This document shows, piece after piece, positions 48,001 through 50,105 of a stretch of DNA of 50,105 nucleotides. The position numbers are program-made. Every line of letters starts with the position of its first letter. The first letter of the stretch is position 1. The DNA is from a virus (taxonomy: Duplodnaviria > Heunggongvirae > Uroviricota > Caudoviricetes): IMG/VR virus record IMGVR_UViG_2630968414_000007; one strand, 5' to 3'.

Positions 48001-50105
48001 ACCCGAATGATCCGAAATGGGTTAAGGGGATCCAGACCCGCGATTCTGTGAACCAGAACCAGCAAGAAACGGAACAGAACGACCAGAAAGCGGAACAAAA
48101 CAGCCCAAATACGCAACAAAACGAGCCAGAAACGAAACAACCTGAACCAGTAGTGCAACAGGAACCGGAAAAGATCTGCACCGCCTGCGGTCAGAGCGGT
48201 GGCGGCAACTGCCCTGATTGTGGTGCGGTGATGGGTGACGCAACATACCAGGAAATATTCGATGGAGAGAATCAGCCTGAAGTTCAGGAAAATGATCCGG
48301 AGGAAATGGAAGGTACTGCACATCAGCACAAGGAGAACACTGGCGGCAATCAGCATCATGCCAGCGATAGTGAAACTGGCGAGGCGTCAGATCCCTTAAT
48401 TAAGGCGAACGGTCATCATAATCTCACATCCACCAGCAGAGCGGGGATTCATCTGATGATCGATCTTGAAACCATGGGAAAAAATCCCGATGCCCCGATT
48501 ATCTCAATAGGTGCAATATTTTTCGATCCGCAAACCGGAGATATGGGACCGGAATTTAGTAAGACTATCGATCTGGATACTGCTGGCGGAGTCATTGATC
48601 GGGACACCATGAAATGGTGGCTTAAACAATCACGCGAAGCGCAATCTGCCATTATGACCGATGAAATCCCGTTAGATGATGCACTGTTACAATTGCGGGA
48701 ATTTATCGACGAAAACTCCGGTGAATTTTTTGTTCATGTCTGGGGAAATGGAGCCAACTTCGACAACACGATTTTGCGCCGTTCATACGAACGGCAGGGG
48801 AGCCCCTGCCCGTGGCGTTACTACAACGATCGCGATGTACGCACAATCGTTGAGCTGGGGAAAGCCATAGACTTCGATGCCAGAACGGCTATTCCATTCG
48901 AAGGTGAGCGCCATAATGCACTTGATGACGCCCGTTACCAGGCAAAATACGTTTCAGCTATCTGGCAAAAACTGATCCCGAGTCAGGCTGATTCTTAATG
49001 TTCAACTGTCGCCGGTTGTGACTGGTATTCTGCAACCGGCGCTCGTCTGATGTAAGAGATAAAGAAATCGATGAGCGAAGTAATCATGATTGTCTCTCCC
49101 GGCAAATGGGTATCCGAAGAGCAGTTAATTGCGCTGAAAGGAATAAAAAAAGGTACGTTAAAAAAGGCCCGGGAAAAATCGTTTATGGAAGGAAGGGAAT
49201 ATAAGCATGTCGCTCATGACGGTATGCCATGGGATAACAGTCCATGCTTTTACAACCTGGAAGAAATTGATCGCTGGATTGAGCGCCAGGCATCAGCAAG
49301 ACCAAGACGTCATCTTACTTGACTAAAAGCCACACTAACTAATGAGAGAAGTTGAAATGAAATATCCGACAGGCGTGGAAAACCATGGAGGGAAATTACG
49401 TATCTGGTTTGTTTATAAAGGCGTAAGAGTCAGGGAAAACCTGGGGTTCCTGACACAGCAAAAAACAGGCGCGTTGCAGGTGAGCTACGCGCCTCTGTTT
49501 GTTACGCAATAAAAACTGGTGTTTTCGACTATGCAAAACAGTTTCCCTCCTCACGCAATCTGGAAAAATTTGGTGAGGCCCGACAAGATTTAACCATAAA
49601 AGAACTGGCTGAAAAATTTCTGGCACTGAAAGAAACTGAAGTCGCAAAAACATCACTCAACACATACCGTGCCGTCATCAAAAATATCCTGAGCATAATC
49701 GGTGAAAAAAATCTTGCCTCATCGATTAATAAAGAAAAATTACTGGAGGTTCGTAAAGAGCTACTGACTGGATACCAGATCCCCAAAAGTAACTATATTG
49801 TTACACAACCAGGGAGATCGGCTGTAACTGTAAATAATTACATGACAAATCTTAACGCCGTGTTCCAGTTTGGTGTTGATAACGGTTACCTGGCAGATAA
49901 CCCGTTTAAGGGGATCTCGCCATTAAAGGAATCAAGAACCATTCCGGATCCTCTTTCGCGGGAGGAATTCATCCGTCTTATCGATGCGTGCAGAAATCAG
50001 CAAGCCAAAAATTTATGGTGTAATACCGTCCTCAGTGGTGATTTTTAATGTGACGAAATTACGCCCCGGACAGGTAACAAAAACTTCAGCCTTTACGATC
50101 TTCAT

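Follow-up and report, generated by a model that had tools for sequence, protein, structure and literature searches.

A deletion junction between the prophage integrase and rspA at the right end of an Sp12-type prophage in Escherichia coli O157:H7

Gene content of the right prophage end

The window analysed here is a stretch of 50,105 nucleotides of viral DNA (IMG/VR record IMGVR_UViG_2630968414_000007), and its DNA is that of Escherichia coli O157:H7. The right end holds an excisionase gene, a broken integrase gene and the first codons of the host gene rspA, as follows.

49071-49322, plus strand: excisionase gene, intact, 83 aa, DUF1233 (ORF list; Pfam PF06806, E = 1.6e-31; RefSeq excisionase family protein)
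49342-49442, plus strand: integrase pseudogene, first segment, covering the Arm DNA-binding domain's N-terminal half, in the original frame (PF12167 profile positions 1-29; alignment to intact integrases)
49442-49443, plus strand: 1-bp deletion (frameshift) in the integrase Arm domain (alignments, sequence; RefSeq 'frameshifted')
49443-50021, plus strand: integrase pseudogene, second segment, the remaining Arm domain and the SAM-like core-binding domain, ending at residue C227 of 431 (translation, Pfam, alignment)
50020-50021, no strand assigned: deletion junction, a GT dinucleotide common to both parents, 2-bp microhomology (alignments, base-by-base extension test)
50022-50048, plus strand: out-of-context tail of the integrase frame, NTVLSGDF and then a stop, read through antisense rspA (translation; ORF 49842-50048)
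50020-50105, minus strand: rspA 5' remnant, 86 nt, 100% identity to K-12 rspA, codons 1-28 plus 2 nt (E = 2e-36)

The excisionase is now without an integrase partner. The integrase-like gene starts at 49342 or 49357, and its first frame (MKYPTGVENHGGKLRIWFVYKGVRVRENLG…), read from 49357, stops at 49512, while the remainder lies in another frame, in which the peptide from 49443 reads GVPDTAKNRR…QQAKNLWC. At the frameshift site the window has CCT-GGGG, compared with TCTTGGGG or TCTGGGGG in the intact relatives (strain 96_1414P and O55:H7 CB9615). The frameshift is considered real because the top-listed independent assemblies, which have 100% identity over 49300-50105, share it, and it is separate from the 3' truncation of the gene. 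The first-pass annotation had correctly described the integrase lesion as a 3' truncation, while the additional upstream frameshift at 49442/49443 had been missed.

An intact relative of 431 aa carries, according to Pfam, an Arm domain at residues 9-71, a SAM-like domain and PF00589 (Phage_integrase) at residues 206-397. In the remnant, the Arm domain was recognised by PF12167 at profile positions 1-29 and 29-65, in two different frames owing to the 1-bp frameshift, and the SAM-like core-binding domain by PF13102 (23.2 bits, cut-off 22.3) and, just under the cut-off, by PF14659 (20.6 bits). Pfam returned no match in the remnant to the catalytic domain PF00589 with its R-K-H-R-H/W-Y residues, in agreement with the earlier claim that this domain is missing; the remnant ends at residue 227, right before the TGIRPGE motif with the first catalytic arginine. 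The integrase is therefore a gene remnant and not a functional lambda-type tyrosine integrase.

The downstream sequence had been called rspA-like, and database comparison supports this at full identity over the 86 nt. The stub is also 100% identical to the 5' end of O55:H7 rspA, and its identity rests on both sequence and conserved locus, since ynfA, ynfB and speG then follow as in K-12. Its open frame, MKIV…EDGITP, has 30 codons, with the A of the ATG at 50105 and the stop at 50013-50015. Of full-length rspA (404 aa, a starvation-sensing, mannonate-dehydratase-like protein of the enolase superfamily), 28 2/3 of the 404 codons are left. The stub segment itself is widespread and was present in 5,382 of 5,426 genomes.

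Existing annotations agree with this picture. RefSeq/PGAP describes the integrase remnant as 'Arm DNA-binding domain-containing protein, frameshifted; incomplete; missing C-terminus', and the rspA remnant as a pseudogene 'missing C-terminus', a 5' fragment, 'hypothetical protein' or 'starvation-sensing protein rspA'. The curated Sakai record lists the integrase as the pseudogene intR (ECs_5736) in 'prophage Sp12, lambda-like phage'.

The junction and the missing segment

When the alignments were extended base by base, integrase homology stopped at 50021 and rspA homology at 50020, with zero further bases either way. No insertion sequence, filler DNA or duplication was found at the joint, and a scan of the junction and the rspA-ynfA spacer gave zero sigma-70-like promoters and two weak terminator-like hairpins at chance level. 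Previously, the integrase match had been said to end with QQAKNLW at 50018, with the reverse complement of the first 27 codons of rspA starting at the next base. The abrupt end and the identity of rspA both stand, while the exact positions shift: the match runs one codon further, to QQAKNLWC at 50021, the stub comprises 28 codons plus 2 nt, and the breakpoint, formerly at 50018/50019, falls within 50019-50021 with 2-bp microhomology, so that the earlier figures were off by at most 3 bases and by one to two codons, which is immaterial. The alignment to an intact integrase and an intact rspAB locus, which had been proposed as a check, defines it at the GT of 50020-50021.

The undeleted gene order is retained in two references. 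K-12 has intQ (catalytic part intact), a 187-bp spacer, rspB, rspA and ynfA, and O55:H7 CB9615 has exo, xis, an intact int (431 aa), an attR/ydfJ' spacer, rspB, rspA and ynfA. Against both K-12 (L002) and CB9615 (L006), exactly 2,964 bp are missing from the window, the same length each time, and the right end can thus be confirmed as a deletion junction. The lost segment takes in integrase codons 228-431, the spacer with attR and the 5' stub of ydfJ, rspB in its entirety, and rspA from codon 29, last base, through the stop codon; the absence of the rest of rspA and, presumably, of rspB had been anticipated, and both lie within this segment.

The distribution of the junction was determined with a 50-mer probe centred on the joint, each half of which is too short to seed alone, at an identity of at least 99% in 5,426 complete E. 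coli genomes. The probe was found in 295 of them, one copy each, including Sakai and EDL933, and the 60 records among the junction matches listed are all either O157:H7 or unserotyped. In PA20, Sakai and F8092B the flanking genes ynfA, ynfB and speG are collinear. As for rspB, it was found in 4,974 of the 5,426 genomes and was absent from 452, a larger number than the 295 with the O157 junction. That all 295 junction carriers lack rspB is compatible with these counts and with Zhou et al. (2010, PMC2806823), which are the basis of the statement.

The attachment site

The att core consists of 11 bp, GAAATCCATAA, inside ydfJ. We derived it from a comparison of the left end of Sakai Sp11 (attL, in the ydfJ pseudogene), the Sp11|Sp12 border, and attR of K-12 and O55:H7. 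An attR of Qin/Sp11/Sp12-type phages is expected to carry this core (extended form ATGACTCTTGAAATCCATAA) beside the int stop codon. K-12, O55:H7 and strain 96_1414P all have the core, and so does the Sp11|Sp12 border of Sakai. A 20-mer attR core was also considered and was rejected, being too long and not found at the Sp11 attL, and the common core was reduced to 11 bp. Neither the 11-mer nor the attR 20-mer was found near the window's right end or within 6 kb downstream of it, as the first-pass annotation had supposed in stating that the attachment site is missing; matches to the 11-mer with one mismatch occurred only at 13.8 and 31.7 kb, which is chance level.

In Sakai, the far flank of the Sp11-Sp12 pair is a normal ydfJ attL, and next to the ydfJ pseudogene is a gene whose annotation is D-mannonate oxidoreductase. 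As att sites, the tandem pair has attL and, in the middle, a hybrid site, but no attR. Sp11 retains only the C-terminal 537 nt of an integrase, fused to an exonuclease pseudogene and followed by an intact att core (L007, 7514-8098; L009, 2810-2820), while Sp12 keeps only the N-terminal 227 integrase codons.

The window as a hybrid prophage

On sequence comparison, the right 21 kb of the window can be assigned to prophage Sp12 in the Sakai nomenclature. From 29 to 50.1 kb the window differs from Sakai Sp12 by 0-4 differences per kb, except for 13 in the 32-33 kb bin, and over the right 3.1 kb (46996-50105) one base differs from Sakai. This sole mismatch of the final 3.1 kb is at window 47633, within the 823-aa exonuclease ORF (46527-48998). 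General recombination of Sp12 was scored as defective by Asadulghani et al. (2009, PMC2669165); the exonuclease ORF 46527-48998 is nevertheless open in the window.

The assignment cannot be extended to the whole stretch. Base 1 of the window is unmatched in Sakai, which revealed a hybrid, and the reading of the entire window as Sakai Sp12 was rejected; instead of collinear near-identity over the whole element together with the Sp11/ydfJ left flank, near-identity is confined to about 29-50.1 kb. Positions 1-10644 and the prophage at ompW in O157:H7 strain 138 share 99.99% identity, and the part from 10.6 to 29 kb is a mosaic in comparison with both Sakai Sp12 and the ompW-site prophage of strain 138. 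The window thus holds the right half of Sp12 fused to another, ompW-site prophage. In this comparison, for which loci L010, L011 and L012 were used, strain F8092B was found to have the same element, with trpA, yciG, yciF, yciE and ompW' on its left and rspA' and ynfA on its right, and the element of the source strain is a hybrid between ompW' and rspA', like that of F8092B. A prophage flanked by 'trpA | rspA' has also been tabulated (PMC8190617).

The two halves are joined in F8092B, whereas strain 138 has them about 400 kb from each other and in opposite orientation; therefore, an inversion in the source strain, with the ompW-site prophage and Sp12 as its two lambdoid partners, apparently gave rise to the hybrid. 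Inversions between prophages are well documented in O157:H7 according to those passages of PMC10925052 that cite Iguchi 2006 and Fitzgerald 2021, and a 50-kb indel within the Sp11/Sp12 compound prophage has been reported (PMC7645076).

Several other features were observed in the window. An IS3-family element at 3442-4753, with about 95% identity to a Sakai IS629/IS1203 copy, is inserted in a DUF4765-family gene, and DUF4765 genes, intact and truncated, lie on either side of it. The tail-tip gene gpJ differs in length from that of strain 138 by about 357 bp at about 10600-10650, and overlapping BLAST segments at the same place suggest an internal repeat. Three phage-borne tRNA genes are found on the minus strand at 35647-35896, upstream of the late region, namely Arg-tct, Arg-tcg and a tRNA with a CAT anticodon, which is Met according to ARAGORN and ileZ in the Sakai record. 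As well, the small RNA DicF is encoded on the plus strand at 45832-45883 (Rfam RF00039, 76.7 bits), between ydfC and dicB as in K-12 Qin.

Origin of the junction and alternative explanations

Phages of the Qin/Sp12 type integrate within the 5' part of ydfJ, which lies just downstream of rspAB, and integration leaves the order xis, int, attR, ydfJ' stub, rspB, rspA, ynfA; as the ancestral state of Sp12, this order is reconstructed. Once O157:H7 had separated from O55:H7, one deletion of 2,964 bp in its lineage would then have joined integrase codon 227 to rspA codon 29. Lost with it were the whole catalytic domain of the integrase, the core of attR, the stub of ydfJ, rspB and 93% of rspA. Apart from this, the Arm domain of the integrase is broken by a 1-bp frameshift. 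The deletion would have become fixed in the founder of O157:H7. Direct observations are the anatomy of the joint, the deletion size, the loss of the domains and of the site, and the fact that the junction is fixed in O157:H7; nothing found contradicts the anatomy. Taken together with a single-lineage origin, the account of a single 2,964-bp deletion is very probably correct. We infer one event, the alternative being a multi-step history with erased intermediates, and likewise the order of the deletion and the frameshift. The joint points to illegitimate, microhomology-mediated recombination, because it shows a 2-bp GT microhomology, although an overlap of 2 bp is weak evidence for any pathway and would arise by chance in about 1 in 16 random joints.

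Insertion sequences offer the main alternative route to the same scar: an element such as IS629 might have landed in int or rspA, caused an adjacent deletion, and later been cleanly removed, for example by the IS-excision enhancer (IEE). IS629 is very active in O157:H7 and IEE is known in O157; deletions promoted by IEE are reportedly established. Insertion sequences do tend to enter this locus: an IS2 remnant truncates intQ of K-12, an independent, IS1-bounded deletion took int, attR and most of rspB from strain 23CRST042, and IS3-family copies are present in both Sakai Sp12 and the window. However, at 50019-50022 there is zero IS, terminal inverted repeat or target-site duplication and the two parents meet directly, while none of the 295 genomes (0/295) has a variant of the junction. 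Such a two-step deletion is considered unlikely because 23CRST042, the sole clear IS-mediated case at the locus, retains its IS1, whereas the O157:H7 joint is free of any IS.

It has also to be asked whether the prophage went straight into rspA at codon 29, at a secondary site, with its integrase truncated independently. Public Health England papers do name rspA as the 'insertion site' of the prophage, yet an integration of this kind would not cut the phage's own int at the exact base where host DNA begins. Moreover, the joint has no flanking att core, rspB and the ydfJ stub, which would be expected across the insertion, are absent, the far flank of Sakai Sp11-Sp12 is the usual ydfJ attL, and both undeleted references give the same missing length, all of which makes secondary-site integration highly improbable. 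That a chimeric assembly brought together integrase and rspA pieces which lie apart in the cell has practically no chance of being true. The abruptness of the junction alone spoke for it, and it is refuted by the identical junction, once each, in 295 complete genomes that come from many laboratories, the finished ones of Sakai and EDL933 among them, and by the collinear flanks in PA20, Sakai and F8092B. Read-pair support across the joint had been suggested earlier as a control against a chimera, and the genome survey serves in its place.

The single deletion thus being preferred, a further question is whether it was favoured by selection. It is conceivable, though quite improbable and with no support here, that selection fixed the deletion in the O157:H7 founder by immobilising an effector-carrying lambdoid prophage and removing RspAB, with the retained putative rspA promoter and the 30-codon stub now sending starvation-regulated antisense transcripts into int', xis and exo. 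RspAB is reported to dampen the homoserine-lactone-dependent induction of RpoS.

Loss of excision and of host genes

Since there is neither a recombinase nor a right-hand site, site-specific excision is impossible, and even if another resident prophage provided an integrase in trans, this enzyme would find no attR to work on. The Sp12 integrase was listed as disrupted by Asadulghani et al. (2009, PMC2669165), who predicted Sp3, Sp11 and Sp12 to be non-excisable; in the same study, Sakai Sp12 showed zero circularisation, replication and packaging with or without mitomycin C. The first-pass annotation had described the prophage as locked in place. This is borne out, with the Sakai Sp12 data, for site-specific (integrase-mediated) excision only, and it does not extend to homologous recombination, which still reshuffles the region, the window itself being a hybrid.

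The predicted loss of rspA by the host was also confirmed, given the few codons left and the published finding that O157:H7 has lost rspAB. Zhou et al. (2010, PMC2806823) found rspA and also rspB downstream of the Ep9 phage in O55:H7 CB9615 and absent from O157:H7 genomes, and regarded them as probably lost in the O157:H7 lineage. From the gene content, the cell is predicted to lack both RspA and RspB. Because integration in ydfJ had already split the sugar-acid cluster ydfI-ydfJ-rspB-rspA, the later loss of rspAB would fit the decay of an already broken pathway.

The scar is already known as an annotated and published feature of Sp12. The present analysis merges two published facts, namely that Sp12 is non-excisable and that rspAB is lost, into one event of 2,964 bp; a base-pair description of the junction was not found in the Sp12 and O157:H7 literature examined, while its substance is known. 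At base-pair level, the scar explains both the non-excision of Sp12 and the lack of rspAB in O157:H7. It is also a clean lineage marker for O157:H7, present in every O157:H7 genome among the matches listed and absent from O55:H7, and an example of how a prophage can become permanent when one small deletion removes the recombinase, the site and neighbouring host genes. In addition, caution is advised where 'rspA' is given as an insertion site by typing schemes or by software for prophage boundaries, since the true attachment site is in ydfJ. Beyond such bookkeeping, its importance is little.

Comparison with known prophages

Sakai Sp12 (NC_002695.2, 2204089-2255027; intR, ECs_5736) has the same junction, frameshift and gene order as the window, and the difference is that the left 10.6 kb of the window is not Sp12. 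K-12 Qin occupies the same ydfJ locus by rspAB, its integrase DNA is about 99% identical over the common part, its early region has the same layout with dicB, DicF and the exonuclease, and it is likewise decayed and immobile. However, the opposite half of int has survived in the two elements: in Qin, the N-terminus of intQ was lost to an IS2 remnant and the catalytic domain, attR, rspB and rspA were kept, while in the window attR, rspB and most of rspA are gone.

Prophage Ep9 of O55:H7 CB9615, from the closest sister lineage, lies at the rspAB locus with the same gene order and represents the undeleted state, and the same 2,964 bp are missing from the window relative to Ep9 too. It differs in having an intact integrase of 431 aa with about 5% DNA divergence from the window remnant, as well as other late and regulatory genes. 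Because K-12 intQ resembles the remnant more closely than does the Ep9 integrase, with its identity of only about 95%, the CB9615 prophage is not the direct ancestor of Sp12. In strain 23CRST042 (L013, 4288-5057), an independent IS1-bounded event beside rspA has removed the early region of the prophage together with int, attR and rspB. There, IS1 remains at the junction, rspA is intact and 46 nt of rspB are left, whereas the O157:H7 joint has no IS and cuts into rspA. The border between prophage and host at rspAB seems, therefore, to have been eroded repeatedly.
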